Shown piece by piece: positions 5,177-61,280 of a DNA stretch of 64,000 bases. The stretch comes from Rickettsiales bacterium. Lineage in GTDB: Bacteria > Pseudomonadota > Alphaproteobacteria > Rickettsiales > UBA998. The DNA lies in assembly GCA_036770365.1 (NCBI GenBank), contig DAIPJH010000006.1, positions 64,904 through 128,903 on the forward strand, in the 5' to 3' direction. The first letter of the stretch is position 1, and the number at the start of each line of letters is the position of its first letter. Under the pieces are notes generated by a model. That model was not told the DNA's origin. It did no database searches and was given only the letters and a program-made list of their open reading frames with translations. The translations under genes and the position numbers were made by a program.

Positions 5177-5207
5177 CGCATGCTCCTTTTACTTTTAGAC
5201 AGTAACA

Positions 5208-5357: not shown

Positions 5358-5388
5358 ATCATAAAAACCAACGTCTAATCAAAGCAGA

Positions 5389-5405: not shown

Positions 5406-5469
5406 ACTTTTTAAAGAATAAATTTGTTAATATGTAGAGATATACAGCTTAATTATATGGGTTTATTTT

Positions 5470-6024: not shown

Positions 6025-6029
6025 TAATA

Positions 6030-8261: not shown

Positions 8262-8314
8262 GCCCTATGTTTTACACATCTTCACACGAGAATAAAGCAG
8301 GAAATGACCTTCAT

Positions 8315-8347
8315 CTTCACGAAAATGTCATCTTTCTATGGCATGGT
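8315..8347 (+). promoter_or_regulatory. Degenerate Pho-box-like promoter
   Basis: CTTCAC-GAAAA-TGTCAT (8315-8331), 10 nt, then CATGGT; upstream of ORFs 8457 and 9178. Confidence 0.4.
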
Positions 8348-8456
8348 ACTTAAGCGTACGTGATAACGCATGCTGTCCTATGCCTTTTTAACACTTGAAT
8401 CTATGAGAAAACAATGAAGCAACCATGTGACATAGACACCAAAGGAAAATATTAAT

Positions 8457-9095: not shown

Positions 9096-9177
9096 TCATT
9101 TTTAAAAAAAGTAGGGCATTATAAAGTTAAAGTGATATAGACTACCCACAACATATAATAAAAAAGACAAGAACATC

Positions 9178-11958
9178 ATGCGCACACAAATACTTTCTGA
9201 ACTTTCACAACGAGTCGGTGAAACACAACATGTACTGAGTACACTTTTGGCTGGTGGAAAATATGACCCCGCACAACATCCCTTACTCAAAAAACAACTT
9301 GGTTTTATGCATGATGATGGCTATGTACTGGCCGAGCCAAGCGCGTACGAACAAAAAAATAATGGCAAAGACATTGTCACGCGTCAAAACCCAATGCGCC
9401 ATACGCAACGTAACAACCGCAATCGTTTACTAGCAAAACTTGATGACAAAGACATCCAGTTTGTACATATTTTGGGTTCACAGGTACGCCAACGTACCAT
9501 TTCAGGTGAATCTATTCCTGAATATGCTAAGGTCTATATCTGCCCCAAAGCAGATATGTATGCGATGCGTGAAATGACAAGCATCATCAAAGCAAAACTT
9601 GATGCCTTACAATCAGGTGATACCGAAAACCCCATCATCAAAAAACCCCTGATCATTGTCAACCAAGACGTCAACGACCCTAAAGAAACCGCAAAATATT
9701 ATGATGCACTACTCGGCAACCTCAATATCAAAGGAGATATCAGAGACGAGCTGAACATCGTTACTGTGGATACCGTAAATGCGGCGGTCAGCCATGCCGA
9801 ACACGCCTTGTATGTCTTGCGCGATCTCGACACCCCTCCTCGCCCGAAACTTGATCCTGCACTCAAACCAGGAGATACGATTTTTATCCATACTACCACG
9901 GTAGAAAAACTACGTGATTACCAAGAAATTTTTCGTGAGCGTGGCATTACTGTACGGATGCTTTCTGCATTAGAGAGAATCGCAGAAAGTCCTGCGGAAC
10001 ATAGCCATAGTTTTGAAGGTAATGCCGAAGAAAAATTACGCGCTGCACAGAAAATGATTGCAGAGATCCCTGACGAAGTATTCACAACCAAATTTGGACT
10101 AAAACGTTCTCAGGTACATGTCATGGTTGATGATTCTGGCTTTTATATGAATGAACCACGCCTGCTAGATCATATGAACCTTGAAGATATGGGGGGGATC
10201 ATCAACAAGGATGAATGGAAACGCGATAAGATTCCCTTTCCCGGAGTCGAGCTTGGGCCACTGATGAATGCCTCTAACGGTCTTAAGAATTTTATGGATC
10301 GCATCATACAAGCGTTAGATGACATTGATGCACAATATAATGTTCCAGCAGATCGCAGCATGACCGACGTTTCTTGTTTAGCGATTTCCGCCGCCCCTGA
10401 TTATGATCCCTCCGTCAAAGACATCCCACTCGCAGAGTATAGGCCTAAAGTGATGGATTTTATGATGTACGCCAACAAAGATTTAAACTTCAAAGCACGC
10501 ACCGAAAAAAATCTACGATCAAGTGGCATTGACCCACGCCTTGTGGAATCCAAAGATTATCAAATGCCCGCGTATGATAACCCCAAAAATAAGACCATGG
10601 GTGAATTTGAAGCCGAAGACCCTTCATGGCGCGTGCGCAACCACGTGCGAGCCTTGGCCTCACGCGCCTTAATGAGCGAGCTTGGATTACCTGAGCGTAG
10701 TAAACACCCAGAACTTTACAAAGATTTCGACAATCAACGCCGCCAAACAGATACTCGCACTTTCACCATTTCCTTACAGGGCGCAAAACACGATAAGCTT
10801 GCTCATGCACTGATACAACAAGGTGTAGCGAGTCCACAACGTGATGAAGCGCATCCCTTACAAACTCTTTCAGAGATGGAAGACGTCATTAAAACAGCAG
10901 ATGGGTTTGTTTTATTACCACATAATGACAACAACGACCTTGCTGAGAAATGCGAAAAGGCTTTTCGCTTTTGGTCACTGCTTGTAGCTCGTCAAACTGA
11001 TCCTCGTGATAACGACAAACCTATTGTCATCTATAACCCTCATCATGAGTGGGATAAACATCTTGAAGAATACAAAGAACTCCACGCATTAGGCGCGGTG
11101 AAAGAGAAACCTGAATTAATGTTCAAAGTCATCAATGGCAAAGGTGAACATGGCATTAAGGAAATAACAACTTACCTCAAACAGCAACGTGAACAGCGCG
11201 ACCCTCCCATTAACTACGCAAATCACGGCGAAGATAACATCACCCCCAAAAACGACGTGAATCGTTTCAATGTGGCGATTTTTTGTTCTGCCAATTCCGA
11301 AAAAGAATCCTATCAAGCCGATGTTTATAACCTCTCTTATAATCTTTGTAAGGATGGGTTTGGCGTTGTGTATGGCGGTGGCAGTCGCTATATGATCGGT
11401 AAGATTGCAGATGGCGCGCAAGCCGCACAAAATGACGGTTTTGATGCATCCATCACAGGTTCTAGTATGGATCACCTTGTAATTCGTGAAGGTGTTCGTC
11501 CTAATATATTAAAAGAACAAGATTCGTATCACAGTGCGAAACATATCTATCAACGTATGGAATACATGATAGCATCCTCCGATGCGTTTGTGATTGCTCC
11601 GGGGGGCATCGGCACGTTACAAGAACTCTATGCACTCATGTTACTTCAAGCACAACATGCCAAAAATATGACTGGCAAAGAAATAGTGATCGTCAACAAA
11701 CAAGATGAGCATGGGCATGGTTTCTATGACCCGATCCTTGCGAATATCTCTCTTGAAGAACGTAAACAACTTGGCATCACTGTGGTTTCGACCGTGGAAG
11801 AAGCTAAAAACAAGGTAGATGAATTCCGCATACGCAGCGACAAGAATAAAAGCATCGAACATGCCACATCGCTACCGCCAGAAAATTCAAATTTTGTAGA
11901 CAGATTCACGCAGGAAAAGCTCGAAAAAGCACAAAAAACAGCTACAAGAGGCACATAA
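9178..11958 (+). CDS. Multidomain protein: HAM1/ITPase-like domain plus LOG/SLOG-like domains
   Basis: SFEGNAEEKLRAA, VDDSGF and FPGV (HAM1-like); VYGGG and YQRM..DAFVIAPGGIGTLQE (LOG family); 926 aa. Confidence 0.75.
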   Translation: MRTQILSELSQRVGETQHVLSTLLAGGKYDPAQHPLLKKQLGFMHDDGYVLAEPSAYEQKNNGKDIVTRQNPMRHTQRNNRNRLLAKLDDKDIQFVHILGSQVRQRTISGESIPEYAKVYICPKADMYAMREMTSIIKAKLDALQSGDTENPIIKKPLIIVNQDVNDPKETAKYYDALLGNLNIKGDIRDELNIVTVDTVNAAVSHAEHALYVLRDLDTPPRPKLDPALKPGDTIFIHTTTVEKLRDYQEIFRERGITVRMLSALERIAESPAEHSHSFEGNAEEKLRAAQKMIAEIPDEVFTTKFGLKRSQVHVMVDDSGFYMNEPRLLDHMNLEDMGGIINKDEWKRDKIPFPGVELGPLMNASNGLKNFMDRIIQALDDIDAQYNVPADRSMTDVSCLAISAAPDYDPSVKDIPLAEYRPKVMDFMMYANKDLNFKARTEKNLRSSGIDPRLVESKDYQMPAYDNPKNKTMGEFEAEDPSWRVRNHVRALASRALMSELGLPERSKHPELYKDFDNQRRQTDTRTFTISLQGAKHDKLAHALIQQGVASPQRDEAHPLQTLSEMEDVIKTADGFVLLPHNDNNDLAEKCEKAFRFWSLLVARQTDPRDNDKPIVIYNPHHEWDKHLEEYKELHALGAVKEKPELMFKVINGKGEHGIKEITTYLKQQREQRDPPINYANHGEDNITPKNDVNRFNVAIFCSANSEKESYQADVYNLSYNLCKDGFGVVYGGGSRYMIGKIADGAQAAQNDGFDASITGSSMDHLVIREGVRPNILKEQDSYHSAKHIYQRMEYMIASSDAFVIAPGGIGTLQELYALMLLQAQHAKNMTGKEIVIVNKQDEHGHGFYDPILANISLEERKQLGITVVSTVEEAKNKVDEFRIRSDKNKSIEHATSLPPENSNFVDRFTQEKLEKAQKTATRGT

Positions 11959-12033
11959 CTCTATTCCTTTTGACATCCTAAATCAAAAGGAGTACCACAC
12001 ACTCGAAAAATAAAAGTTGAGAGTGATCGCCTT

Positions 12034-14001
12034 ATGTCGCTACGTCAAATCAAGCATTTCCTGCTTGGGAAACCCCTGAACCCTTTTAAAAAAGAAACCA
12101 GACAACATATCGCTTTAGCGACATTTTTTGCATGGATAGGGCTTGGTGCTGACGGTATTTCATCCTCTGCATATGGACCTGAAGAAGCATTTCACGCGCT
12201 TGGTATGCATAATGACATGGCGATCTTTCTTGCGCTAGCGACGGGATTGACCGTTTTTTTGATCGCCCTTGCTTATTTACAAGTGATCATGCTGTTTCCT
12301 AACGGTGGCGGTGGTTATAAAGTTGCCTCTAAACTGCTCGGCGCAAAAGCAGGACTTGTCTCTGGCTCTGCTTTAATTGTGGATTATATTCTAACTATTG
12401 CCATTTCGATTGCATCGGCAATTGATTCTTTTTTCTCCGTGACACCGATTTCATGGCAACCCTATAAAATCTTTGCTGAATTATTTTTGATTGGTGTCCT
12501 GACCTACATGAATTTGCGGGGCGTAAAAGAATCCATCAAAATACTCATGCCCATCTTTTTAGGGTTCATCTTTGTCTATAGTTTCTTGATCATCTATGGA
12601 ATCGCCTTCCATTCTGAAGGTTTGACCGAACTCCTTCCGAATGCAGTGCATGAAGCGACTACCTCCGCACAATCTATTGGCTGGCTTGCAGTAATTGCCC
12701 TGTTCTTCAAAGCATTTTCACTTGGAGGCGGGACATATACAGGACTAGAAGCTGTCTCCAACAGCGTTCAGAGCCTTGCTGAACCTCGGGTGCGTACAGG
12801 TCGCAACACGATGCTTTGCGTCGCCGCTTCCCTCGCTTTTATGGCGGCAGGGATTATCATGATCTACCTGTTATGGGATGTAGAGCGTATTCCAGGCCAA
12901 ACCATGAACGCTACCGTATTTTCAAAAATCACGGCAGGTTGGGTCATTGCAGACGTCAATATTTCTGAGATGGTCGTTGCTATTGCCATGTTACTTACCG
13001 CTGGGCTATTATTCGTCGCTGGAAATACGGGCTTTATCGCAGGTCCAGCCGTTCTCGCAAATATGGCCCTTGATCGCTGGATGCCACATTTCTTTTCTGC
13101 TCTTTCTAGCCGCTTGGTCACCAAAAACGGAGTAATGTTGATGGGGATGGCGGCGGTGGTCGCACTCATCATTACGGGTGGTCGCGTTGATATGCTGGTG
13201 GTTTTATACTCCATCAACGTATTCCTTACCTTTACCCTTTCGATGGCAGGTGTTACGCGCTACCGTTGGCAACGACGCAGACAAAAAGGTGAACTCAAAC
13301 ATATCATTCTACCTGCTATATCCACCATTATTTGCGCGGGCATCTTATGCACCACCTTATTTGAAAAATTCCTGTTTGGAGGTTGGATGACATGCGTTAT
13401 CACAGGACTTTTCATCATCATCGGCTATTTGATCCACGACCACTATAATACGGTGAAGCAGAAAATCGACCGTACGGAAGGAGATCTTGATAGTGCTATG
13501 GAAAGCTTGGGACGCACTTCTGATGTCGTCAACGAACTTGATCCGAAAAAATCAACCGCGGTCTTTTTGGTTAGCGGCAGCAACGCAAGCGGCATGCATT
13601 GCTTCTTGTGGGTTCAACGTCTGTTTCCTAATGCCTTCCATAATTTTATTTTTGTATCCGTCGGTGAGATCGACACCGAAGAATTCGCAGATCATGAAAA
13701 ATGGCAGCTGTTACGCCGTGACACTAAAAAAATGTTAAAACGCTACGTTGAATTTTGCCACAACCGCGGATTAGCCGCTGAATATTATCATGATTTTGGC
13801 ACAGACGCCTTGGACAAACTCACAGATATTACCAATAAGATCTCCAAAGATTATCCTCGCTCTGTCTTTTTTGCCACCAAACTCATCTTTGAAGATGAAA
13901 GCCCAATTACGCAGTTGCTCCATAACCAAACCGCCTATATTATGCAACGACGTTTGCATAATGCTGGTCGCACAATGATCATCATGCCAATGAAGATATA
14001 A
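12034..14001 (+). CDS. APC-superfamily permease (YdaO/KimA-like) with cytosolic C-terminal domain
   Basis: GADGISSSAYGPEE, PNGGGGY and TGLEAVSN motifs; about 12 TM segments followed by a soluble tail. Confidence 0.85.
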   Translation: MSLRQIKHFLLGKPLNPFKKETRQHIALATFFAWIGLGADGISSSAYGPEEAFHALGMHNDMAIFLALATGLTVFLIALAYLQVIMLFPNGGGGYKVASKLLGAKAGLVSGSALIVDYILTIAISIASAIDSFFSVTPISWQPYKIFAELFLIGVLTYMNLRGVKESIKILMPIFLGFIFVYSFLIIYGIAFHSEGLTELLPNAVHEATTSAQSIGWLAVIALFFKAFSLGGGTYTGLEAVSNSVQSLAEPRVRTGRNTMLCVAASLAFMAAGIIMIYLLWDVERIPGQTMNATVFSKITAGWVIADVNISEMVVAIAMLLTAGLLFVAGNTGFIAGPAVLANMALDRWMPHFFSALSSRLVTKNGVMLMGMAAVVALIITGGRVDMLVVLYSINVFLTFTLSMAGVTRYRWQRRRQKGELKHIILPAISTIICAGILCTTLFEKFLFGGWMTCVITGLFIIIGYLIHDHYNTVKQKIDRTEGDLDSAMESLGRTSDVVNELDPKKSTAVFLVSGSNASGMHCFLWVQRLFPNAFHNFIFVSVGEIDTEEFADHEKWQLLRRDTKKMLKRYVEFCHNRGLAAEYYHDFGTDALDKLTDITNKISKDYPRSVFFATKLIFEDESPITQLLHNQTAYIMQRRLHNAGRTMIIMPMKI

Positions 14002-14041
14002 TGATATAACACTTTATACCGCGCTTTCGAGAAGGAACAAG

Positions 14042-14548
14042 TTGATGGCATATCTTCTAAGACTTTCTTGTTATTTATTGGTAATGATCATCGCCCTACC
14101 TTCTTACAGCTTTGAGCGACTACAAGCTCCTGTACCGTCTTTAAATGCGACTCCTGCTCCCCTAGTGAAACGCAGCGTTTTCATCCATAAACACAATGGT
14201 GAACTTATAAAACGCTCCCTTGAGATGGCAGATACACCAGAAAGCGCAGAAGCTGGCTTGATGTTTCGCCGCGAACTTGAAGCAGATGGGGGCATGGTCT
14301 TCAATTTTTCCAACTGTTCGCACCACGCTATGTGGATGAAAAACACTTATATTCCGCTCGATATGATTTTTGTGGGTTGTGACGGTACTATCACGCATAT
14401 TATTTCCAACGTCACGCCGCTCAGTGAAAAAATCATCACACCTCAAGAAAAATCCGCGGCAGTGATTGAACTTCATGCAGGAGAGAGCGCAAAGCTTGGT
14501 CTTGCGGTGGGTGACAAGGTTGAGATTCAACAGAGGATCATGCCATGA
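14042..14548 (+). CDS. DUF192 domain protein (exported)
   Basis: EMADTP..GLMFR..GGMVF..MWMKNTYIPLDMIFV..VIELHAG..GDKV. Confidence 0.88.
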   Translation: MMAYLLRLSCYLLVMIIALPSYSFERLQAPVPSLNATPAPLVKRSVFIHKHNGELIKRSLEMADTPESAEAGLMFRRELEADGGMVFNFSNCSHHAMWMKNTYIPLDMIFVGCDGTITHIISNVTPLSEKIITPQEKSAAVIELHAGESAKLGLAVGDKVEIQQRIMP

Positions 14549-22814: not shown

Positions 22815-24260
22815 GTGCTAATGCAGAGAGAATCTTATACACCACCTTTTGATATTGCCCCGCTGATGCTGCGCGCACGCGACGAAAGCCTGCGTTCGCA
22901 TTTTTCTGCCTTTATTGGCAAATGTTTTGCGGCGGTTGACCCTAGCACACCGTATTTGCATAATTGGCATATCGACGCGGTGGCGGAACATTTAGAAGCA
23001 ACCCGCCGCAGCGACATCACCCGCCTGATTATCAATATGCCACCACGTGCGCTAAAATCTGTGTGTGTCAGTGTCGCATGGCCAGCATGGCTGCTTGGAC
23101 ATCACCCGAATATGCGCATTATGGCGGCGAGTTATTCGCAATCGCTTAGTTTACGTCACGCGCTGGATACACGCCTGATTGTCAGCACACCATGGTTTGA
23201 ACGGATGTTTCCACGCTTCAATATTACGCATGGACAAAATGAAAAGCATAAATTCGTGACCACAGAACGCGGTTTTCGGTTTGCCACGTCAGTAGGCGGT
23301 ACGGCAACGGGTGAAGGAGGTGACGTACTGATTATCGACGACCCACTCAACCCCATCCAAGCTGCATCACGTATCGAACGCGAGTTTGCAAGTAGTTGGT
23401 TTGACCAGACCTTTGCCACACGCTTAAATGACAAGGCTCATGGGCGAATTGTCGTCGTTATGCAGCGTTTACATAAAGAAGATTTGACAGGACATTTGCT
23501 CGAAAAAGGTGGCTGGGAACATTTATGTTTACCTGCAATTGCTGAAACGCGCACGATTATTCCACTCTCTGGGCGTGAGTTTATACGCGAAATTGGCGAT
23601 ATTTTGCATCCTTCCCGCGAAGGCGAACTCTTACTTGCACGTGCCAAACGTGAACTCGGCAGTTTTGGTTTTGCCGCACAATATCAGCAAGCCCCCATCC
23701 TTAGCGACGGTGGGATGATTGAAGCCACATGGCTGCAAACCTACCCATCCACGCCGCCGCTGGACGCCTTTTCACGCATCACCCAAAGCTGGGATACCGC
23801 CATCAAAGCCGCTACGCATCATGATGCGAGCGTGTGCCTCACCTTTGGAGAGATGGATGGGCGGCATTATCTGCTGGACGCGCTGGCGATTCGCGCAGAA
23901 TATCCGCAGCTCAAGCGCACCATCACCGAACTTGCTTCGCGCTATCGTCCTAACGCCGTATTGATTGAGGATAAAGCAAGCGGACAATCACTCCTTCAAG
24001 ACCTTCGTCGTGAGTCTAACCTCAACCTTATCCCGCGTATGCCAAGGGGTGATAAGATTACCCGCCTCGCCGCCATCAGCCCGATGATAGAATCTGGTAA
24101 GCTCCTGCTGCCGCGCCACAGCACATGGCTAACAGATTTCCTCCAAGAACTCCTGAACTTCCCACACGCACCCCATGATGATTATGTCGATGCACTCACG
24201 CATTATTTAGGATGGGTACGTGATCAACAAGGAACGTCACAGAGGATTCGTCGGCTATAA
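22815..24260 (+). CDS. Phage/GTA terminase large subunit
   Basis: LIINMPPRALKS (Walker A region), LIIDDP (Walker B), VVVMQRLH, SWDTA and HDDYVDA nuclease motifs. Confidence 0.9.
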   Translation: MLMQRESYTPPFDIAPLMLRARDESLRSHFSAFIGKCFAAVDPSTPYLHNWHIDAVAEHLEATRRSDITRLIINMPPRALKSVCVSVAWPAWLLGHHPNMRIMAASYSQSLSLRHALDTRLIVSTPWFERMFPRFNITHGQNEKHKFVTTERGFRFATSVGGTATGEGGDVLIIDDPLNPIQAASRIEREFASSWFDQTFATRLNDKAHGRIVVVMQRLHKEDLTGHLLEKGGWEHLCLPAIAETRTIIPLSGREFIREIGDILHPSREGELLLARAKRELGSFGFAAQYQQAPILSDGGMIEATWLQTYPSTPPLDAFSRITQSWDTAIKAATHHDASVCLTFGEMDGRHYLLDALAIRAEYPQLKRTITELASRYRPNAVLIEDKASGQSLLQDLRRESNLNLIPRMPRGDKITRLAAISPMIESGKLLLPRHSTWLTDFLQELLNFPHAPHDDYVDALTHYLGWVRDQQGTSQRIRRL

Positions 24261-24262
24261 CA

Positions 24263-26188
24263 TTATTTACGTAATATATTATCTTTAACAGGTGGTATGT
24301 GATCAATATCTGAGACCGTATTATTCGGCGATTCTTCCACCAGCGCATCCGTAAGTTCCGCGTTCGCAATACTGCGTGGATTATCTTGATGCTCAACTTT
24401 TTTTGCTAAGGATACCTTCGTATACAGCTCCATCCAACGCTGCGGGTCACACTTCACCGCTTGCATCATCGTCAAGAAATTATCAAAGGAAGGCTTCATC
24501 CCTTCCCATGTTTTTATCTGAAAACCAAAATTTTTATTATGTTTAGACGTAGATGGCTTAGGTTTCACTCCTGCTTCAACCATAACATCCATCATCTCAG
24601 ATGCCGCGGCAACCTTACTCACCACTTTTTCAAGTTCTGACTTAGTAAGATGACCAAAACGAAAATCGTTTGCCGTCTTGCGCAATGCTCCTGCGGCTTG
24701 AGACATCACGTTGCGCGCCGCGTTCACATCAACACATGATGCGTCAAACTCATAGGTTTGTGGTGCGTCGGTAAACTGCTGCGCCGACCCGAAATAATCC
24801 GCCATCTGCCCTAACGCACTGCGCACTTCTTGCACCGCTTTCCTTTTTGATTCCGAGAAAAATATCTTCTCAATACGTTCTTTTGTTGCAGGGTCATCCA
24901 GAAAGACACTTGGTAAGCGTGAATGCACTAAGGTAGAAGACTTGATTGTGCCATGCTGACCTGCGCCGTTAAGCCATGCCGCATCAAAAACATCTGGATA
25001 CCGCTGCCATGACGCCGCGTCTGCCTTAATATCTTGCCAAAACTGTGCGGTTTTATACTGATATTCCCTCTTATAGAGATTAAGATACGATTTGGAGGCT
25101 GCCTCCACATCCTCAAATAACGGTTTGAAACGTGCATCTTCGCGCACTGGCGGTAGAAAAATATCTAAGATGGAGGCCACTTCCTCCATCGCCTTACCTG
25201 CCGCTTCTAATTGTCCAAGATTATTGCGTCCACGCGCATGAGGTAACATTAAATAGTGAGCATCACGTGGAATCTCATGAAGATGACGACTCGCAGAGTG
25301 TCCCATCTCAACCCCAACCGCCATCGCCTCTAAAAGATCAGGACGATGTTGCAATGAATCCCGCGCAGCTTGCACATACGCATTAAATTGTGGCATCAGA
25401 TCAAGATGATGATTATCTTGCAGTTCATAAAGTAAGTTGATCACATGTGTTTCAGCAGTAACATCATCATCCACACCATCACGATTTAACGTTTCAAACT
25501 CAATTGTTCCTGCACCATATTTCTTAAAACCCTGCGCCCCTACTTTGCCCCACAACATCTTAATGGCGCATTTGGGAATAAGTTCCCTACCTTCTTTATC
25601 TACAATCTTAAAAAGCTTATTTCCTGATCTATCCATCGCCCAAGCATTGGGTTCTCTATCTAAATTCGTAATTTCAGTACCACCAGCGAGAAGGTGTTTG
25701 CCGCCATAAGCGTCAACACATTCCACATCTTTACTGATAACAATACCACCAAACTTCAAAAGTTTATTGGTAAACGCCTCGCGCACACGCGGCACAAACC
25801 AAAAATCAACATCTTGCAAAGGGATATTGACCTGTTTGCCATCTAAAGTCGTTTGTAAGGTAAATCCTGCTTCACCCAATAAAGTAGGTGCTTTTAATGA
25901 CATTTCCAGCTCAGGTTTATGTACAAAATAAAATGCACCAAATAACCCTTCTTTTTTACGCATTGCAGCTGCTTTTGATTTCTCAGGTCCAAAAATAATA
26001 TAATCCACCAACGACTCTGACAGATCATTATAAGGTCCAGTGCCAGCAAGATTTTCTGCATGATCACGTTTTTTTGAAAGAACATTATCACGCGCAGAAG
26101 CAATCGCCTTCATCCCCTCAGCATAACGTGCAATTGCCTCACCATAATGACGTATTTCCAGTGGATCTTTGTAGGTCTTAACTGCCAT
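24263..26188 (-). CDS. Hypothetical protein, tandem paralogue of 26188..28047
   Basis: 641 aa; shares GLFGAFY..H.PELEMSL.AP.L.GEAG and MMQAV.CDP.RWM.LYTKV with its neighbour. Confidence 0.8.
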   Translation of the reverse strand: MAVKTYKDPLEIRHYGEAIARYAEGMKAIASARDNVLSKKRDHAENLAGTGPYNDLSESLVDYIIFGPEKSKAAAMRKKEGLFGAFYFVHKPELEMSLKAPTLLGEAGFTLQTTLDGKQVNIPLQDVDFWFVPRVREAFTNKLLKFGGIVISKDVECVDAYGGKHLLAGGTEITNLDREPNAWAMDRSGNKLFKIVDKEGRELIPKCAIKMLWGKVGAQGFKKYGAGTIEFETLNRDGVDDDVTAETHVINLLYELQDNHHLDLMPQFNAYVQAARDSLQHRPDLLEAMAVGVEMGHSASRHLHEIPRDAHYLMLPHARGRNNLGQLEAAGKAMEEVASILDIFLPPVREDARFKPLFEDVEAASKSYLNLYKREYQYKTAQFWQDIKADAASWQRYPDVFDAAWLNGAGQHGTIKSSTLVHSRLPSVFLDDPATKERIEKIFFSESKRKAVQEVRSALGQMADYFGSAQQFTDAPQTYEFDASCVDVNAARNVMSQAAGALRKTANDFRFGHLTKSELEKVVSKVAAASEMMDVMVEAGVKPKPSTSKHNKNFGFQIKTWEGMKPSFDNFLTMMQAVKCDPQRWMELYTKVSLAKKVEHQDNPRSIANAELTDALVEESPNNTVSDIDHIPPVKDNILRK

Positions 26189-28047
26189 TACCGTCCTCGT
26201 TCTTCATTAAGCGTAGCCGCCGGACAGCGCGCTAGTATTTCTGTGACCCTCGTATCAGGTTGTGACGATACGAGGGTATCCTGCATTTCTTTTGCCTTAG
26301 CAACCTTGGTATATAACTTCATCCACCGCTCTGGATCACACTCCACTGCTTGCATCATACCAATAAAATCATGCATAGTGGCTCGTTGCGCGTTCCAAGC
26401 ATCCATAGTCGCAGACACGTTATCACTACACATATGCTGCGCAACATAATCCATTGCCTCACATGCATCCGCACAACGCGCAACATGAAACGCTAACAGA
26501 GCTTTAGTCACTCTATCTTTACGCACACTATCTTCAAGCTGACGTAATGCGACCACCCCTTCATTAATAGTTGTCACCAGTTCGTCCCTTGTGGGTGCAT
26601 CAACAGTTGTAGCTGCCGTCATATCACTTTTTTGCAAATGCAACCCAATTGATTCCATCGGAATACTTGCATTTTCAAAGGCTGTAAGAATCTTTTGCTT
26701 CGCTGTACGACATAATGATGGCGCACCATGTTCCTGCACTATTTCTTGTATATTCACATTTTCAAGAAATCTTAGCGGTATTCCATGATAAAAATGTGAA
26801 TCCTGTGTGATCTTTGCAAAAGAAATGATCTGATTTCCCTCACCTCGCAACCACGCTTTGTCAAACGGTTGACTGCATTGATCAATAAAATGCAGGGGAG
26901 TTTTTTTAATATCAGCAAGCAATGTCTGCTCGGTATAATCATTGATGTGCGTAGTAAAAGCATCTGCCACGTTTTGAACGGCTTGTAATAAAGGTGCATA
27001 TGTTGGATTATGGCTCACATCAGGCAAAGACAATCCAAGTGCATCCGCTGTGTCGTTTATTTTTGCCGCTGCCGTGGAAATCGCTGCCAAGCCAATATAA
27101 TCATTGTGGGTATCATCCCCAGCAAATTGATAAAAATAAAAATTATTGGGGAGATTATCCATCACCGCCCGCACCTTCTGACTCATCGCAATAGCTGCCG
27201 ACATTGCTTCTAACATCTGAGGCTTATTTACAAGCGAGTCCCGTGCATGTGTTATCATCATATTAAACTCAGGCATTAGGTTGATGTGATGATGTTCCTT
27301 AAGCTCTAATAGCCAACTCACCATTGCACCCTCAGCATTAAAATCATCTTCAACACCGTCGGTTGCCAAAGTATTAAATCGCGGAGTGTCTTTGCCTTGA
27401 CGCTTAAGTCCTTCCTTTGCGCCAACATGCCCCCATAGCATCTTCACCGCATCAATATTGTTGATTTGCTTATCTTCTTTATCAACAATGGAAAAAAGTG
27501 TTTTTTTTCCATTCATAACCCATGAACGTCCGTTCGTAAGTACTGCACCAGCAGGCAAAATATGCGTTTTGCCGTCATCACCCTGCCACTGCGTCTCTTC
27601 CTCAAGAAAAATTTTACCTCGCACTGCACCGTCAGGTGATTGTTCATGAAAATCGATTTTAATATCTTGTAAAGGGAGATACATCGCCACCCCATCTACC
27701 TCTGCTTTAAGACGACAGCCAGCCTCACCCCATAATTTAGGGGCTTGTAACGACATCTCTAGTTCAGGACGATGCAAATAATAGAACGCACCAAATAACC
27801 CAGCTTTTGTTTGTTTGGCTGCTTCGCGCATAGCATCTTCGCCATACACTATATATTCTTCCTTCTGCGTGGCTTCGACGGTATTATAAGGTCCACGCCC
27901 GACCACTGTCTTTATCGCGTCCACATCCACCCTCAATGCAGACTGCGCAGCAGCAACTGCCTTCATTGCATCAGCATAGCGATTTAAAAGAATACCATAA
28001 TTCTTTATTTCAATAGGTTCTTCAAAATATTTTGGATCGTTAGCCAT
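26188..28047 (-). CDS. Hypothetical protein, tandem paralogue of 24263..26188
   Basis: 619 aa; stop overlaps the next start (TAATG). Confidence 0.8.
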   Translation of the reverse strand: MANDPKYFEEPIEIKNYGILLNRYADAMKAVAAAQSALRVDVDAIKTVVGRGPYNTVEATQKEEYIVYGEDAMREAAKQTKAGLFGAFYYLHRPELEMSLQAPKLWGEAGCRLKAEVDGVAMYLPLQDIKIDFHEQSPDGAVRGKIFLEEETQWQGDDGKTHILPAGAVLTNGRSWVMNGKKTLFSIVDKEDKQINNIDAVKMLWGHVGAKEGLKRQGKDTPRFNTLATDGVEDDFNAEGAMVSWLLELKEHHHINLMPEFNMMITHARDSLVNKPQMLEAMSAAIAMSQKVRAVMDNLPNNFYFYQFAGDDTHNDYIGLAAISTAAAKINDTADALGLSLPDVSHNPTYAPLLQAVQNVADAFTTHINDYTEQTLLADIKKTPLHFIDQCSQPFDKAWLRGEGNQIISFAKITQDSHFYHGIPLRFLENVNIQEIVQEHGAPSLCRTAKQKILTAFENASIPMESIGLHLQKSDMTAATTVDAPTRDELVTTINEGVVALRQLEDSVRKDRVTKALLAFHVARCADACEAMDYVAQHMCSDNVSATMDAWNAQRATMHDFIGMMQAVECDPERWMKLYTKVAKAKEMQDTLVSSQPDTRVTEILARCPAATLNEERGR

Positions 28048-30902: not shown

Positions 30903-30930
30903 AAAAGGAGGCTTTATGCCTCCTTTTTTG
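30903..30930 (+). terminator. Rho-independent terminator (copy 2, identical to copy 1; probably bidirectional)
   Basis: AAAAGGAGGCTTTATGCCTCCTTTTTTG. Confidence 0.85.
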
Positions 30931-30955: not shown

Positions 30956-31885
30956 TTATGAAACCAAAGTACTATAGAGGTGCATGACGTTCTTATGCAA
31001 AAACCTACGAATTTGCATTTGCGGCTCTAACATTTCAATGATAGTGCCGAGTAACGGTGGATAGGCCTGCGTATGTGAGTTTAAAATTTGTTGCAATACA
31101 TCTTGCAGCATATCATGCGGGTATACTCTCAAACTCTGCATAAAATCCTCCATCAGGGCAGCTTTCTGATCTTTGTTGACTGCGGGATAACGCCTAAATA
31201 TATGCTGCACTATGCCGCATATTGCCTCTGATGTGATCGGTATAATCAACAACGCCGCTTCCCTTACCCCCGCTTCCACACGCCCTTTATGGCGCACATC
31301 TATTCTTTTCTGTGTACCACGAGTAGTAAAATACTTAAAATCAGTGAGATAAGGCGTAAGATAGGACAAATTAGGGCATGGCAAGGTTACCCGCTCACAT
31401 ACCCCATAATTACTTGATCCATAATTACTTGATATTGTTTTTAAAGAAAGAGTTGGATCTGGTTTATTGGATAATGGTTTATTGGATAATGGTTTATTGG
31501 ATGGTTGCAATGCGGCTGAAACGGTTTCACTATTTTTTAGGAGCTTAACCTCTCCCCGTATCTCTGCACTACGTTTTCCCTTCTCTCGCTGGCGTTCAAT
31601 TTTTTGCGCAACATCTTCCCATGTTTTATCTAACCTTTTTTGCCTCAAAACCCCATCTTTCACATGAAAAAAAGGCATGATTGAGCTACGGTTTCGCTTC
31701 CAACGCGCAAGGGGCAAACGCACGATTTTAGCAATTTCAACATCATCATCACGTACACCAATTCCATTATTGCGCCATATGTAAAGCAACAACAATAAAT
31801 AAATGCCATGCTGCTCAGTAGTTAAATGATGGGTATCACCCAGATATGCGTCGGTATAAAACGGCATGATTGGGGCTTGTGCCAT
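30956..31885 (-). CDS. DUF1376 (YdaU-like) phage-type replication initiator
   Basis: N-terminal MPFYTDAYLGDTHHLTTEQHGIYLLLL..LRQKRLDK..EKGKRSA; repetitive linker; C-terminal L..YP.D.L..V......AYPP..IIE segment. Confidence 0.75.
   Translation of the reverse strand: MAQAPIMPFYTDAYLGDTHHLTTEQHGIYLLLLLYIWRNNGIGVRDDDVEIAKIVRLPLARWKRNRSSIMPFFHVKDGVLRQKRLDKTWEDVAQKIERQREKGKRSAEIRGEVKLLKNSETVSAALQPSNKPLSNKPLSNKPDPTLSLKTISSNYGSSNYGVCERVTLPCPNLSYLTPYLTDFKYFTTRGTQKRIDVRHKGRVEAGVREAALLIIPITSEAICGIVQHIFRRYPAVNKDQKAALMEDFMQSLRVYPHDMLQDVLQQILNSHTQAYPPLLGTIIEMLEPQMQIRRFLHKNVMHLYSTLVS
31404..31433. repeat. 2 x 15-bp tandem repeat
   Basis: CCATAATTACTTGAT x2, inside the DUF1376 gene. Confidence 0.9.
31461..31502. 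repeat. About 2.8 x 15-bp tandem repeat
   Basis: GGTTTATTGGATAAT x2 plus GGTTTATTGGAT, inside the DUF1376 gene. Confidence 0.9.
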
Positions 31886-32046
31886 GAAATATCACTCCTT
31901 TTGTGTGACAAGTTAAGCAACAATCAAAACCTTACAGCCAGATTACAGGAAGAGGAAATCTGATAAATTGCTAAAGTCATTGCCAAGCATGGCGCGGAGC
32001 TGTAACGTTATAGCGATATCTATCTGAACCATTGACCCTGCACACT

Positions 32047-32403
32047 ATGACCTCACACACACCCTCATCTCCCCTCACTGAGTCAGAGTTCCGCGAGCGT
32101 GCAGATGCAACGCTGGAATATCTGTTTGAGAAGCTTGACGAAGAAGATATGGGCGGCGTTTTGGATCTAGATTTGCAAGAAGGTGTATTGTCTATTGCAA
32201 CCAACACAGGTCACGCTTTTGTGGTCAGCCGCCACGTCCCTAGCAAAGAAATATGGCTTTCTTCTCCACTCACAGGCGGGCTACATTTTGCTTACCCCTA
32301 CAAACAAGATGACTGGTGGCTGCGTGATGGCCGCACCCTCACCGTGGTACTTTCCGAAGAAATTAGTCAAACGACAGGCTGTGAATTCACGCTCGGCACA
32401 TAA
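32047..32403 (+). CDS. cyaY: Frataxin-like iron donor protein CyaY
   Basis: LDLQEGVLSI..FVVSRHVPSKEIWLSSPLTGGLHF..W..DG. Confidence 0.9.
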   Translation: MTSHTPSSPLTESEFRERADATLEYLFEKLDEEDMGGVLDLDLQEGVLSIATNTGHAFVVSRHVPSKEIWLSSPLTGGLHFAYPYKQDDWWLRDGRTLTVVLSEEISQTTGCEFTLGT

Positions 32404-33215
32404 AATGGTGCAAGTTCGTACATAGGCAAACTGGCGTCGCCATAAATAGGATCAGGCGGCGTAAGATGATGCGTTATACCATATGCAATACCTTGTAATA
32501 CCGCCGCGATCACATGTTCGATGTTGGCGTCTGCCCCTGCTACGCGATGCTCGATACGTCGCGCAGTGCTACGCGGTGACCCAGCAAGATGTTCCTTACC
32601 CTGAAGCAATCCTAACCCATCAGGGATACGTAATGCGGTGGTGCGGTTATTATAACCCCAACTAACAGTCACAGGAGCATGAAATCCTGACACTACCCGC
32701 CGCCATGATGCCTCTGATGGCATGAACACGTGAAGATAATCAGGCATCGTCACTAACAATCCCGCCAAGCTCTGCTGAAGCGGCGCACTCAGAACCCCTT
32801 CTTGTTTGATGTAAAGTAGATTACCACCATCGCCTTCGAGGTGGACATGGATATGAATTCCACTGCCATAATCTTGTGCAAATGGTTTGGCTGAGAAATC
32901 TGCCATGAAACCCATCTGTGAAGCGATATCCTGAGCAACGCCGCGGAGCGCACGTGCCTGCGCGACCAATATTTCAAGATCATTCGTTGGAAAAAGTGCA
33001 GCTTCAACCTGCCCCAAACCAGATTCTTCATTGACCGAATGAAGCAACAACCCAGCCTGCTGAATTCGCTCGAGATAGACCGCACGTGTAGCATTATCTG
33101 CAGGCATAGCATCATCAAGACGACGTAGATACCATTCCCACTCCAACGCAACACACGCCACCACGCCACAGCTTTGCTGTAACGCCAGCGACGCGTTATG
33201 CGCACTCAACAACAT
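32367..33215 (-). CDS. Glutamine synthetase-like catalytic domain only
   Basis: LEWEWY, EESGLGQVE, KPF..GSGIHIHVHL, SWGYNNRTTALRIP and RIEHRVAGADAN; no N-terminal beta-grasp domain. Confidence 0.8.
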   Translation of the reverse strand: MLLSAHNASLALQQSCGVVACVALEWEWYLRRLDDAMPADNATRAVYLERIQQAGLLLHSVNEESGLGQVEAALFPTNDLEILVAQARALRGVAQDIASQMGFMADFSAKPFAQDYGSGIHIHVHLEGDGGNLLYIKQEGVLSAPLQQSLAGLLVTMPDYLHVFMPSEASWRRVVSGFHAPVTVSWGYNNRTTALRIPDGLGLLQGKEHLAGSPRSTARRIEHRVAGADANIEHVIAAVLQGIAYGITHHLTPPDPIYGDASLPMYELAPFYVPSVNSQPVV

Positions 33216-38641: not shown

Positions 38642-39106
38642 ATGCAGCAAGCTTTTGTTTCCTCTATGCCGTCCAACCCACACTATGCGGGTAGTTCACC
38701 TACCACATTCTTGGGTTCACCTGTGACCGTCCAAAGCAATAATCCAGCCCATATAACCTCGAATGGAGATATTTACCCCGAAGATTCCTATAATCCTGTA
38801 CACCATGAACAATCTATGTGGCGTGCTGTAATCGTACAAGCTTTAATGGACGCATCAAGTTCCAGCCAAAAATCTGAAGCTTTAACATGGAAACGCGAAG
38901 CAGAAATCTGGCTGCGCGGTAATAGCCCTGATTTTCATACTGTATGTTTTTATGCAGACCTAGACCCAGATTTTGTCCGTGAGGTCGCGGCCAAATCCCT
39001 ACAAAAAGGTTGTGTTTGGCGTGCTGCACCAGGTACAGGCCCTATGAAAAAAGATCCACGTCGCACCGCCACACGTTCACCACGTCATTTCACACAACGG
39101 AGATAA
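38642..39106 (+). CDS. Hypothetical protein with a small helical domain
   Basis: RBS AGGAG; MWRAVIVQALMDA..EAEIWL..DFHTVCFYADLDPDFVRE. Confidence 0.7.
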   Translation: MQQAFVSSMPSNPHYAGSSPTTFLGSPVTVQSNNPAHITSNGDIYPEDSYNPVHHEQSMWRAVIVQALMDASSSSQKSEALTWKREAEIWLRGNSPDFHTVCFYADLDPDFVREVAAKSLQKGCVWRAAPGTGPMKKDPRRTATRSPRHFTQRR

Positions 39107-57593: not shown

Positions 57594-58790
57594 TTACGCC
57601 GCCAATTTCAGAAGTTTTAATGCTTCATAATTGACCACTTCACCGCCGACACGACGAGTAGTATAGAATTTTACAAATGGTTTATCTGTAAACGGATCAC
57701 GCAAAATACGTAATCCAATGCGGTCAACGATCAAATATGCCTGAGAAAAATCGCCCACTGCAACCGAAAGTGAATTCGCCGCTGCGACAGGCATATCCGA
57801 CGCTTGATGCACAGGAATCCCCATCAACGTATCTGGTGCGCCTGCGGCTAAACCCGGTTGCCACAAATACTGATTGGTGGTAGATTCTTTAAGCAAACGC
57901 ACCGCTTGCACCACGCTGCGATTCATCAAGAAACTTGCGCCGCGTGCGTACGATTCTTTTAAACTATAGTAGAGTGCGATAAGGCTGTCTGCCGTGACAA
58001 CGGCTGATGTGCCAGAATTAATCTGTTCAACTTGTCCCCAACTTGTCCCCGCCGCATAGGACAAAATCCCTTTAGGCTGACCAGAACCCGAACCTGAGAT
58101 AAACGCGGTCGCCTCCATACGCGCAAATTTATTAGCGACCTTCTCTGCCACCCACGCTTCGACATCAATTGCCGCATCATCAAGCAATTTCTGCGTAGCT
58201 TTTGGCTGTGCATACATCTCAAAGGTTGCCACAGAATGCTTACCAATTTGTGGGGTGGTGGTATCGCTGACCGCACCTGTTTCCGTCGTCCAGTTCGCCG
58301 CAGAATCGCCGGTATCTTCAATGACATCCAATGTATCCGTAGAAATGGTCTCAACACGAGCAAGACCACGAAGTGGTGATGACTCACGGATAATCTTCGC
58401 AACACCCACACTCATCTCATTCGTCACAAGATAACCGCCATCCGCATCTACCCCACGCGAAAGTGATTTCACCTGCAACGCTTCCAGCCCACCGTCCATG
58501 CCTTTGCGAAGATAGTTCACGAAGGCTTTCTTATATTCACTGGTCTCTGGCGTTGTATACGCATGGGTTTTTAAACCAACATCAGGACGTAGACTCGCTG
58601 TTTCCAAACGAGATATTTGCTCCTTAACGTTATCAATGGTTTCGTTCATGCGTGCCATGTTCACGTCATGAAGCGGATCCGAAAAACCACGAGTTTTTTT
58701 CTCGCGTTCCTTCAGTTCATTCTGCGAACGCATATTTTCCCATGCATTACTGATCTCATTAAGCTTTGATACAACTTGATATTCACTCAT
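57594..58790 (-). CDS. HK97-fold major capsid protein (RcGTA g5-like)
   Basis: RBS GAGG before ATG 58790; delta-domain DPL segment; DGGYLV, SPLR, ATQKLLDD, LWQPG, RDPFTDKPFVKFYTTRRVGG and ALKLLKL motifs. Confidence 0.93.
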   Translation of the reverse strand: MSEYQVVSKLNEISNAWENMRSQNELKEREKKTRGFSDPLHDVNMARMNETIDNVKEQISRLETASLRPDVGLKTHAYTTPETSEYKKAFVNYLRKGMDGGLEALQVKSLSRGVDADGGYLVTNEMSVGVAKIIRESSPLRGLARVETISTDTLDVIEDTGDSAANWTTETGAVSDTTTPQIGKHSVATFEMYAQPKATQKLLDDAAIDVEAWVAEKVANKFARMEATAFISGSGSGQPKGILSYAAGTSWGQVEQINSGTSAVVTADSLIALYYSLKESYARGASFLMNRSVVQAVRLLKESTTNQYLWQPGLAAGAPDTLMGIPVHQASDMPVAAANSLSVAVGDFSQAYLIVDRIGLRILRDPFTDKPFVKFYTTRRVGGEVVNYEALKLLKLAA

Positions 58791-58930
58791 AATAAACCTC
58801 ATAAAAACGTGGATAAAAGTATTATTCTTAATAAAAATGTACAACCTTCACAAAAACTTCATTTTTCTATTGTGTTAATGATTGGTAATAGTTATCTTAG
58901 TAGTGAAGCGATGAGACGTTCGGAGAACCC

Positions 58931-59398
58931 ATGAAAATTACGACCAGTTTATTGACCCACCGCGTTAGCATGTCCGATTCTTACAACCCATCATTTCAGT
59001 CAGAGTCTCCTGCCGATGTCATGGCACGCAAGGCCTGTGAAAAAGCCGCGATGAAACAAAATGCCCTTGCTTTTTCCATCAGCCAAGATGATGTGGTCAT
59101 CACCGCTGTTTCCGCTGCCCTCTCTCGCGCACTCACCGACCCCAAATTCAATGCCCTGCCGGAAAAACAAAAAACAGAAGCCGCTTCACGTTTGGCAGAG
59201 CAATACATGCATGGACAACGTTTGGTACAAGCTCTCACTAGTGCAATGAACAACCCTTCAACACTAGCAACCCAGCTAAAGTTCAATTCTCGTGAAGATG
59301 ATACAATTGCCAATGTCTTTGAAACCATCATTGATTCTACTCGTCCAAAGCTAACTCCCGAATCGTCGCAAATGGCATTCATTGGGATAATGCAGTAG
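58931..59398 (+). CDS. Hypothetical protein inserted in the head module
   Basis: 155-aa helical ORF on the opposite strand, overlapping the protease stop. Confidence 0.55.
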   Translation: MKITTSLLTHRVSMSDSYNPSFQSESPADVMARKACEKAAMKQNALAFSISQDDVVITAVSAALSRALTDPKFNALPEKQKTEAASRLAEQYMHGQRLVQALTSAMNNPSTLATQLKFNSREDDTIANVFETIIDSTRPKLTPESSQMAFIGIMQ

Positions 59399-59924
59399 CC
59401 TCCTGAATCAAACGCAGCAAACGATCTGCCGCTTGTATAAATTCTGGTGAGGTCTCATCATATGCATTGGAATGTGCCGTTTTTACCACCGTTACCTTAG
59501 CCTCTGGATTAGATGGAAACGTCACCAATGAAATTTCCCACAATTTAAGGGATTTGATTTCACGCACGCGAGTATCTGGATTCATGACATAGCGCACCGG
59601 CGAATAACCGATCGATAACCCTGTGATCGCACCACTTTTCAATAATGCATACGCATCCCGCGCCCGCGTCACGTCTAATAGCAACCGACCTCGCATAAAA
59701 AGCCCATGCGTATCTTCGTAAAGCTGCTCAATCACACCAATTGGCTCCGCCGTATCATGTTGCCATAACAATTTGATATCTTCAGGACGTGTAAATGCGA
59801 GTGTTTCGGCAAATGCACCACGCATCACCACATCACGTTGCGCATCGACCACATCAAAGACGCTACCATACCCCACAAATACTCCCACCTCATCAACAGA
59901 TTTAATGGATAGCTCACAGGACAT
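59379..59924 (-). CDS. HK97-family prohead protease (RcGTA g4-like)
   Basis: FVGYGSVFD..D.V.RGAF, LLWQHD..PIG, GLSIGY and EISLVTFPSN motifs; start uncertain. Confidence 0.93.
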   Translation of the reverse strand: MSCELSIKSVDEVGVFVGYGSVFDVVDAQRDVVMRGAFAETLAFTRPEDIKLLWQHDTAEPIGVIEQLYEDTHGLFMRGRLLLDVTRARDAYALLKSGAITGLSIGYSPVRYVMNPDTRVREIKSLKLWEISLVTFPSNPEAKVTVVKTAHSNAYDETSPEFIQAADRLLRLIQEATALSQ

Positions 59925-60041
59925 TGTCGCATGTTCACACATCGACTGACTAATTTTTCGTTCGTAAAACATATAACTCTCCAGTTACAAGTTGTAAGTT
60001 ATGCGTTATGATTATGCTTACTGAGAACTCAGGACTCATAA

Positions 60042-61280
60042 CTAATTAACACCAAACACCAGCTTTCTCTTCTCATCCGCCGACAGGAAATCTGCATCCT
60101 TGACACGACTCCACAGACTTTCACGACGCGGACTAAGTGCGCTGATAGACTCTGTATCCGCACTTAAGGTCAGACGGTGGTCAAACATGGGACATAACCA
60201 CCCATTGAGCGACGACAACGTATTGTCTAACATTGGCAAAATGGTCTGCTCCCATAACGCAAGCCGTGCTTCTGCCAAATTCGCATAAGTATTATCCCCT
60301 GTAATCCCCAAGAGTTGCGGCGGCACTCCAAATGCCAGCGCGATCTCACGCGCCGCAGCATTACGCGCTTCTAAAAAATCCATATCTTTCGGACTAAGGC
60401 TCATTTCACGCCAATCCAATCCACCTTCTAAGAGCAGTGGACGCCCCGCATTATGCGAGCCTGAGAATTGTTCATCGACTTGCGTTTTGATACGATAATA
60501 TTGATCTTCCGTGAGTTGACCACTACCGCCATCCCCCGCACGCACCACCAACGCACCACTTGGACGCGCACCATTTTGCAAGAGTGCCTGATTCCATGCG
60601 GATGATTGATTATGCTGATCAATACTATAGGCAGCAGCCTCCACGGGCGATAACCCATACCAATCATCGTTCGGATGAAACTCTTTGATATGCAATACTC
60701 GTGATACACCAGTAATGCTATCAACAGGAAAATCCGTGGCATTTTCTCCCACTTGATAACGATACGCTGCGGGAACACCACCTCGTCCTGCTAAAATCGT
60801 CACACGGTCGGGGCGCAACAAATGCAATTCACGTGGAGCTTCCCCCATAGGCGATACTGCCTGAATATAAACATTTCCCGCGATCAAACGATAATGCGTC
60901 AATTTTTCAAAAAAACCTTTACCAGATTCTAGTGGTGACGGCTTAGCGATCAACGCAGCAAGAGGATGGCTGGCATCCACCACCCGCCCATCACCATCGC
61001 GCACCAACACAGTAACACTTGCCAACCCCTTTGCGATCATCATCATCGCCGCATGGGCAACCACGTTACGCGTATAGGCTTCCTCAGCGAAACGGCGATA
61101 GGTACGCCCAGACCACACAGGCTGCATTGGCGGTTGAAGATAGGATTGCACCGAACCATACCAGCTTGGCACAGCCATCTTAACATCAGGCGGCGTCGCC
61201 ACTGCCTGCTTATTGAATAATATCTGTGATAATCTTTCAGAGAACCGCGTCCTCTGTTGTAATGTTGCCGCCATAGCCAC
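60042..61280 (-). CDS. HK97-family portal protein (RcGTA g3-like)
   Basis: LHLLRPDRV, FHPNDDWYGLSP, ALLQNGARPSGAL, LLEGGLDW, SPKDMDF and FGVPPQLLG motifs. Confidence 0.94.
   Translation of the reverse strand: MAMAATLQQRTRFSERLSQILFNKQAVATPPDVKMAVPSWYGSVQSYLQPPMQPVWSGRTYRRFAEEAYTRNVVAHAAMMMIAKGLASVTVLVRDGDGRVVDASHPLAALIAKPSPLESGKGFFEKLTHYRLIAGNVYIQAVSPMGEAPRELHLLRPDRVTILAGRGGVPAAYRYQVGENATDFPVDSITGVSRVLHIKEFHPNDDWYGLSPVEAAAYSIDQHNQSSAWNQALLQNGARPSGALVVRAGDGGSGQLTEDQYYRIKTQVDEQFSGSHNAGRPLLLEGGLDWREMSLSPKDMDFLEARNAAAREIALAFGVPPQLLGITGDNTYANLAEARLALWEQTILPMLDNTLSSLNGWLCPMFDHRLTLSADTESISALSPRRESLWSRVKDADFLSADEKRKLVFGVN

Follow-up and report, generated by a model that had tools for sequence, protein, structure and literature searches.

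The stretch of DNA analysed here, hereafter the window, is a 64,000-nucleotide section of contig DAIPJH010000006.1 from a bacterium of the order Rickettsiales. At 30956..31885, on its minus strand, lies a gene that we call gene B, whose product of 309 amino acids is, judged by its open reading frame (ORF), its Pfam match and its orthologs, a homolog of the DUF1376/YdaU-type replication initiators of phages. An original prediction, made from the letters of the window alone, had described this gene as a lone phage initiator with repeats inside it and with a possible tie to a gene transfer agent (GTA). The DUF1376-type N-terminus that it proposed is borne out by a match to Pfam family DUF1376 (PF07120) with an E value of 5.4e-13 and 49.6 bits, above the gathering threshold of 30.1, covering residues 7-87 of the protein and positions 3-83 of the 86 in the profile. 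Families of the PHROG collection labelled 'primosomal protein' match the N-terminal half only, and a search of NCBIfam with gene B returned no match. A six-frame search found gene B to be the sole DUF1376 gene of this 2.2-Mb, 99%-complete genome. Its Shine-Dalgarno sequence AGGAG, as read from the sequence, is at 31895..31899 on the same strand, 9 nucleotides (nt) 5' of the ATG.

An AlphaFold model, calculated with an alignment of 18 orthologs, divides the gene B protein into four parts: a winged-helix N-domain, a long helix, a disordered linker and a compact helical C-domain. The N-domain (residues 7-87; 31625..31867, minus strand) has a predicted winged-helix DNA-binding fold with a predicted local distance difference test score (pLDDT) of 85-96, and the first 41 residues of the protein are nearly invariant among orthologs. 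The long helix (residues 83-120) is followed by the linker (residues 121-165; 31391..31525, minus strand), where the pLDDT falls below 50; the segment encoding it lies at or near the minimum of guanine-cytosine (GC) content of the gene and contains every repeat discussed below. The C-domain (residues 166-309; 30959..31390, minus strand) consists of five helices and reached a pLDDT of 93.1 and a predicted template modelling score (pTM) of 0.81 when modelled alone. A Foldseek comparison of the whole model with the PDB gave weak matches, all of them to winged-helix regulators (MarR, IclR, LexA and DtxR) and thus to the N-domain, and among predicted viral structures the top matches were full-length phage DUF1376 proteins. 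A C-terminus resembling helicase loaders, as originally proposed, was not supported by Pfam, PDB profile and Foldseek searches, which returned no loader or helicase-binding fold; the profile search of PDB sequences gave nothing at all.

Is gene B an initiator of phage type? In the Rac prophage of E. coli, ydaU, which also encodes a DUF1376 protein, comes after the cro/cII-like genes ydaS and ydaT and before the DnaC-like gene ydaV, which is the slot of lambda O. Because of this position of ydaU, the DUF1376 domain and the full-length structural matches to phage proteins, we consider the call well founded, and the identity given in the original prediction stands. Almost nothing was found in the literature on the function of DUF1376 or YdaU.

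Using gene B as the query, a database search returned 22 relatives, of which 13 were full length with identities of 30-53%, and further ones were recovered from genome and metagenome contigs. The full-length orthologs are about 30-55% identical to gene B in amino acid sequence, the closest being that at locus L011 (loci in other contigs carry the prefix L) with 53%. Of 14 orthologs, 13 have an intact ORF, and 27 residues, found in both domains, are invariant. The L011 locus is also syntenic with the window: gene B diverges from cyaY, and a Gln-synt_C gene, a thioredoxin gene and glycine-transporter genes are nearby.

A repeat array within the coding sequence

The AT-rich linker-coding DNA in the middle of gene B contains two perfect 15-bp tandem repeats, both recovered by Tandem Repeats Finder at 100% identity and within one base of the positions given in the original prediction. 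The first (31460..31502, minus strand) has 2.9 copies of a unit that reads ATCCAATAAACCATT on the gene strand and encodes SNKPL-SNKPL-SNKP, while the second (31404..31433, minus strand) has 2.0 copies of ATCAAGTAATTATGG and encodes SSNYG-SSNYG. At the site of the first, orthologs carry non-identical heptamers; the second is a duplicated SNYG segment that is single-copy in P0002-P0004, and the DNA sequence AGTAATTATGG is shared without change by the window, L011, L014 and L015. Since the threefold SNKPL and the twofold SSNYG match single copies in the orthologs, the perfect repeats are lineage-specific and recent. Both appear to be slippage expansions of the linker-coding region, of which one enlarges an older array and the other, at 31404..31433, duplicates a segment conserved in the closest orthologs only.

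The older array is composed of eight A[AT]CCA units spaced at about 7 nt (gene nt 380-432; 31454..31506 on the minus strand, from the motif positions) and is a candidate initiator-binding site or origin core. The ATCCAATAAACCATT unit corresponds to two adjoining units of the array (7+8 nt). In all 14 chromosomal orthologs, A[AT]CCA motifs with 7-nt spacing cluster at the same position in the gene (about nt 380-440), as exemplified by CCATAAACCATAAACCACTAAACCATAAACCA at L017 and GGATCCAGGATCCAGAATCCAGTATCCAA at L116. In the first 10 orthologous genes, the density of the motif is 6.7 per 100 nt within the linker interval versus 0.08 elsewhere, and the same array is also present in the four further orthologs. 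Arrays of at least four units occur only twice in the 2.2-Mb genome, once in gene B and once as an unrelated AACCAG repeat on contig C22.

Does the constraint act on the peptide or on the DNA? Across orthologs the array is read in differing frames, which yields peptides such as INH, KPL, ITIIHD and SRIQDPESSIQ. Proline is encoded by CCA at 27 of 34 positions inside the array versus 23 of 181 outside it, and histidine inside the array by CAT at 15 of 16; rare AT-rich codons are used there even in genes of 61% GC. When each peptide was kept fixed and synonymous codons were redrawn from the usage of the gene itself, 12.8±2.7 A[AT]CCA motifs were expected and at most 23 were obtained in 5000 draws, compared with the 55 observed, a fourfold excess. 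The differing frames, the extreme codon choice and a motif excess beyond what peptide and codon usage explain show that the constraint acts on the DNA, and the suspicion that the repeats are more than coding expansions of a linker is upheld. The GC minimum of the gene (gene nt 391-451) coincides with the array in 11 of 14 orthologs. In the window, GC content after the array is 25% over 60 nt (gene nt 421-480), which places this segment in the lowest 1.4% of stretches of the 64-kb window; the AT-rich stretch beside the array is weaker in GC-rich orthologs. Judging from these comparisons, the array is a conserved cis-acting DNA element in the stretch of an initiator gene that encodes the linker, the layout of lambda O and its origin. 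What survives of the internal iteron-like repeats of the original prediction is this 7-nt-spaced array, along with its analogs in phages; the perfect 15-bp copies are absent from orthologs.

The phage analogs come from a scan of viral contigs that yielded 72 loci (L032-L103) with 62 distinct phage DUF1376 genes. All 72 loci match the N-domain and helix only, and the full-length gene B family is therefore not seen in viral contigs. Repeats with a period of 10-13 nt are found at gene nt 300-420 in 24 of the 62 genes, with units that include ATGCGAACGCA, TTCAACGGCTG and GGATGCCCGGC; those of the 11-nt class have 2.4-3.8 copies and are followed by repeats of 5-8 nt. Repeats of this shorter period occupy gene nt 360-480 in 37 of the 62 genes. 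Their commonest unit is CCCACA (20 genes), and others are TCCATA, AACCAT and CCCTT, where TCCATA (Ser-Ile) and AACCAT (Asn-His) represent one [AT]CCATA hexamer in two frames. Periods of 11 nt and 5 nt do not produce peptide repeats. The phage nearest to gene B in its N-domain, L032, carries TTATCCATAAACCA at the same spot in the gene. A repeat element embedded in the linker thus appears to be a trait of the whole DUF1376 class, of which chiefly the short-period part survives in the chromosomal family. Whatever the function of gene B, the linker repeats of DUF1376 genes would predict the sites of origins in many alphaproteobacterial phages.

Two further observations concern the surroundings of the phage genes. 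Small genes resembling DnaA domain IV (HdaB/GafY-like) adjoin DUF1376 genes in phage contigs L053, L054/L103, L080 and L088, a proximity that ties the protein class of a GTA activator to DUF1376 phage replication modules. A Walker-A ORF lies downstream of 9 of 58 phage DUF1376 genes by a crude scan, which says little, as the DnaC-like YdaV of Rac escaped it too; a tblastn search of the phage loci with YdaV and with a DnaC-like protein from contig C27 gave no matches.

Linkage of gene B to a gene transfer agent

In the window, gene B lies 6.7 kb from the gene for a GTA-type large terminase (TerL; 22815..24260, plus strand; Terminase_6C, E 3.9e-17). The GTA head genes, which are detached from TerL in this genome, are found at 57594..61280 on the minus strand and encode an HK97-type capsid (57594-58844; Pfam Phage_capsid, 2e-82), a prohead protease (59379-59972; Peptidase_S78, 4e-37) and a portal (60042-61280; Phage_portal, 5e-79). 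Gene B is located between TerL and these head genes, as had been noticed from the sequence.

The gene neighbourhoods of relatives are more telling. At L013, L016-L020, L115 and L116, gene B stands between A and C in a compact operon, A-B-C, whose genes often overlap, an arrangement that holds in all lineages other than those of the window and L011. The window has a homolog of gene A, the gene directly before B in relatives, at 38642..39106 on the plus strand, 7 kb from B, as identified by BLAST between loci. It encodes 154 amino acids with a core of about 110, is 71% identical and syntenic in L011, and together with TerL and B spans 16 kb of the window. Gene C encodes about 170 amino acids with the motif RRGRPK...GTPEL...HLRWLYTxRYG, has more than 729 relatives in the database, and occurs, once per genome, in 108 of the 301 genomes of the order. 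Neither A nor C matched any family in Pfam, PHROG or NCBIfam, and C has no ATPase motif.

TerL orthologs are found in 226 of the 301 genomes. Across the order, 46 genomes have C and TerL on one contig; a comparison of their coordinates places C within 10 kb of TerL in 38 of these, mostly at 1-3 kb and in divergent orientation. The distance from TerL to B is about 4-9 kb in the window, L018, L020 and L111. In L117 (7618-8522) and L118 (~7590-8537), A adjoins C with no B, about 2-3 kb from TerL, and in these complete-looking chromosomes the A-C pair is oriented divergently to an uninterrupted terminase-portal-protease-capsid cluster headed by TerL. As far as gene neighbourhoods go, the link to the GTA is real: the association first proposed from the window is confirmed by the A-B-C operon of relatives and by the tie of the A-C pair to TerL across the order. 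These neighbourhoods mark A-(B)-C as a phage early or replication-type module attached to the RcGTA-type cluster, with B, a fusion of DUF1376 and the C-domain, present in a minority only. The A-C pair is a candidate GTA-associated locus with no assigned function; as a widespread, unannotated pair of GTA-linked genes it should be useful whatever that function is.

The C-domain of gene B has a distribution of its own. A whole-library search found it in 397 representative proteins, most of them short; 12 of these reach an E value of 1e-30 or below, and nearly all of the 12 are gene B-like proteins of about 280-330 amino acids. In two phage contigs (L085 and L088), a small stand-alone ORF resembling the C-domain follows the DUF1376 gene. 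Moreover, a short gene with the C-domain and no DUF1376 domain lies between A and C at L120 (genome G194; 3802-4506) and L121 (genome G290; 3067-3513), and the N-terminal part of the L121 gene is a low-complexity ISN/ITS repeat.

A candidate replication origin and its alternatives

How does this locus compare with known systems? Like lambda O, gene B has a DNA-binding domain at its N-terminus and a partner-binding domain at its C-terminus, joined by a flexible linker, although for gene B the binding of DNA and of a partner is predicted; like the lambda origin, it has repeated sites and an AT-rich stretch in linker-coding DNA, with a dip in GC. Lambda O, however, belongs to the Phage_rep_O family and has four 19-bp iterons, whereas gene B is a DUF1376 protein with units of about 7 nt, and lambda has a P-like loader gene downstream, whereas gene B is chromosomal and solitary and has no such gene. 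Rac YdaU shares the N-terminal Pfam family of gene B, and the Rac prophage has an active origin, oriJ (PMC3945230), whose position relative to ydaU was not found in the literature. It differs in having another C-terminal part, in being followed by the DnaC-like YdaV and in residing in a recognisable prophage.

The run-off replication (ROR) origin of Bartonella is situated within an O-like gene that has repeats and shows a GC dip, and it adjoins the GTA known as BaGTA (PMC3610622, PMC5496983). The ROR locus (brrA-G) resembles that of gene B in being chromosomal, close to GTA genes and within a region rich in genes for secreted or host-interaction proteins (PMC3610622, PMC5496983). It differs in being a remnant of 6-7 genes, among them those for an exonuclease, a helicase, a TOPRIM protein and a Q-like antiterminator, whose amplification has been demonstrated, whereas the gene B locus is a single gene plus A and accompanies an RcGTA-type GTA and not BaGTA. 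No exonuclease, helicase, TOPRIM or antiterminator gene was found in the flanks of gene B, and relatives add only A and C. By analogy with the Bartonella origin, the gene B locus may represent a phage-derived initiator with an origin-like array that was kept beside a GTA, a run-off function being hypothetical.

A third comparison is with GTA controllers. The Caulobacter GTA activator GafY is the protein HdaB, a homolog of DnaA domain IV; when it is overexpressed, some loci increase in copy number (PMC9632790). GafA and GafYZ (HdaB), activators of RcGTA-type GTAs, are, like A and C, small GTA-related proteins, controllers derived from replication-type proteins, and the A-C pair is linked to the GTA as gafYZ might be. 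Gene B, in contrast, is not a relative of GafA, and A and C have no detectable profile similarity to DnaA domain IV. The possibility that A and C are GafYZ was considered and, as far as detectable homology goes, rejected, as hhalign against an alignment of DnaA domain IV gave a probability of about 0.1% and no families were matched.

We propose that gene B is a domesticated initiator that recognises an origin-like array within its own gene and starts local replication with the host proteins DnaB and DciA, most plausibly when the GTA is induced; we would give this proposal about an even chance of being correct. The N-domain would bind the A[AT]CCA array, the AT-rich DNA beside the array would open, the C-domain would recruit the host-encoded DnaB with DciA, and replication would begin locally inside gene B. 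GTA induction is the likeliest time of firing because the A-C pair around B is physically tied, throughout the order, to the RcGTA-type terminase gene, and firing at that time would over-replicate the GTA-proximal region. The homology, the domain architecture, the conservation of the array at the DNA level and the linkage to the GTA are what the analysis itself provides; from these we infer that the N-domain binds DNA, that the origin fires and that it is coupled to GTA packaging. A local origin of replication with a link to the GTA is plausible.

A number of observations weigh against this proposal. The C-domain model has no PDB match with an E value below 0.7 by Foldseek, and Pfam returns nothing significant for the domain, one member of which matches G39P at E 0.054. 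Gene B has no helicase, loader or primase gene beside it, and the cumulative GC skew has no inflection at 31.4 kb. The 7-nt spacing is unusual for double-stranded iterons, the array of the closest ortholog, L011, is down to two clean units, and the origin may be incomplete, since the 11-nt repeats of phage type are mostly absent from the chromosomal family. A frameshift or stop interrupts the ortholog at L020. Within the order, only 5 of the 301 genomes (families f1, f12 and f18) have a full-length member, and the other 17 genomes of the family to which the window belongs all lack gene B. Finally, the operon is dismantled in this genome, where a search for C found none and A has been separated from B. 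That the gene is domesticated and conserved is true only in part, given the narrow distribution and the broken operon; taken as a whole, the original prediction is partly supported.

Could gene B be a decaying relic, a functionless remnant of the replication genes of a prophage or of the phage ancestral to the GTA, with repeats that are slippage tolerated in a disordered linker? A rare and patchy family, the loss of C and displacement of A, the missing helicase or loader neighbour, the disrupted L020 copy and the two-unit array of L011 would all fit such a relic. So would the 100% identity of the 15-bp repeats, which points to recent slippage, and the retention of just a C-domain gene between A and C in G194 and G290. 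The conservation of the gene argues otherwise. At 30-55% identity, 13 of 14 orthologs remain intact with invariant residues in both domains, and the window and L011 both keep gene B beside cyaY despite 47% divergence of the protein. Moreover, conservation of the array at the DNA level, independent of frame and beyond the needs of the peptide, is unexpected of a neutral relic. We consider this explanation unlikely, if deserving of attention.

Alternatively, gene B may have been co-opted with A and C as a DNA-binding regulator or adaptor of the GTA genes, or as an autoregulator, in which case the array would be an operator and not an origin. Such a role fits the operon that B shares with A and C and the attachment of this operon to the GTA terminase gene; it also fits the N-domain, a winged helix like that of many repressors. 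GTA regulators that originate from replication proteins are known, as the DnaA domain IV-like GafY illustrates (PMC9632790), and the antiterminator BrrG is a product of the Bartonella ror locus (10.1101/2024.11.20.624540). However, as the genome has no comparable array except the unrelated AACCAG repeat on C22, a regulator would be left without a target beyond its own coding sequence. A and C are mostly found in genomes that lack B, which is therefore dispensable for their function, and a site in the linker beside an AT-rich stretch is the classic layout of an origin. A regulatory role is a tentative and, in our view, rather improbable alternative.

The repeats might instead serve the protein alone, as a flexible linker or a short peptide motif (a PSINHxP-like stretch) with no role of the DNA. 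They are indeed in frame and within the disordered linker, and many phage homologs encode (PT)n from CCCACA in a constant frame, but one DNA motif is read in different frames as different peptides among orthologs, codon choice inside the array is extreme, synonymous resampling never attains the observed motif count, and phage homologs have 5-nt and 11-nt periods that are unable to encode peptide repeats. We regard this explanation as very improbable. Least credible is a replacement of the chromosomal helicase loader, with gene B serving normal chromosome replication after a domestication like the one proposed for lambda-derived DopE: Brezellec et al. 2017 reportedly described the domestication of phage initiator or loader genes for host replication, but this genome has its own DciA (59.5 bits, above cut-off) and B is missing from nearly all relatives, which means that gene B is not the chromosomal helicase loader.

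Why would a GTA-linked origin at gene B matter? RcGTA-type GTAs are, to our knowledge, thought to package host DNA randomly and to have lost all replication functions, and we know of one case, that of Bartonella, in which a separate phage origin biases GTA transfer. Extending the proposal for gene B, some RcGTA-type GTAs may have a dedicated origin, a DUF1376 initiator at the A-C locus, its origin embedded in the gene, that fires on GTA induction and over-replicates the GTA-proximal region, rich in secreted proteins, and so enriches this region in the particles. We find this broader claim doubtful. If true, it would represent either a convergent, independent counterpart of the ROR/BaGTA system of Bartonella or a remnant of the replication genes of the phage from which the GTA descends. 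A phage-type initiator that retains its origin-like DNA element within a gene pair tied to the RcGTA-type terminase gene would open a second, independent route to biased gene transfer and might be a living trace of that ancestor's replication module.

Neighbouring genes and other features

Gene B is flanked by two curlin-repeat genes and, at its other end, by cyaY, a Gln-synt_C gene and a thioredoxin gene. No phage gene directly flanks it, the gene downstream being a convergent curlin gene, and its position between curlin and cyaY is as originally described. Between this curlin gene and gene B, we read from the sequence a GC-rich hairpin with an A run and a T run at its edges (30903..30929), a probable bidirectional terminator. 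It was not listed by a terminator consensus scan, and promoter and terminator scans around gene B were uninformative.

Several features of the terminase region and of gene A deserve mention. Directly downstream of TerL in the window and convergent with it are two adjoining paralogs (24263-28047, minus strand) of 641 and 619 amino acids, which share 31% identity and have no Pfam match. At L111 (17426-20721), TerL is split into N- and C-terminal parts by an insert of about 2 kb with several small ORFs. A profile of the A family matches PDB 5i8l_A, a 145-amino-acid chain named 'Lysozyme', with an E value of 3.9e-5 over about 40 residues, a match that we leave unexplained. The genome that contains the window also has a genuine prophage on contig C27 (locus L110, ~4000-14300), with cI/cro-like genes and small and large terminases, in which a 359-amino-acid initiator-like gene and a DnaC/IstB-like gene are followed by a paralog of gene A.

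The Gln-synt_C gene near gene B (32367-33215, minus strand) encodes a protein of 282 amino acids that comprises the catalytic segment of glutamine synthetase only (Gln-synt_C positions 76-278 of 344). As it is syntenic and 57% identical in L011, this truncated GlnA-like gene is maintained and is no fresh pseudogene.

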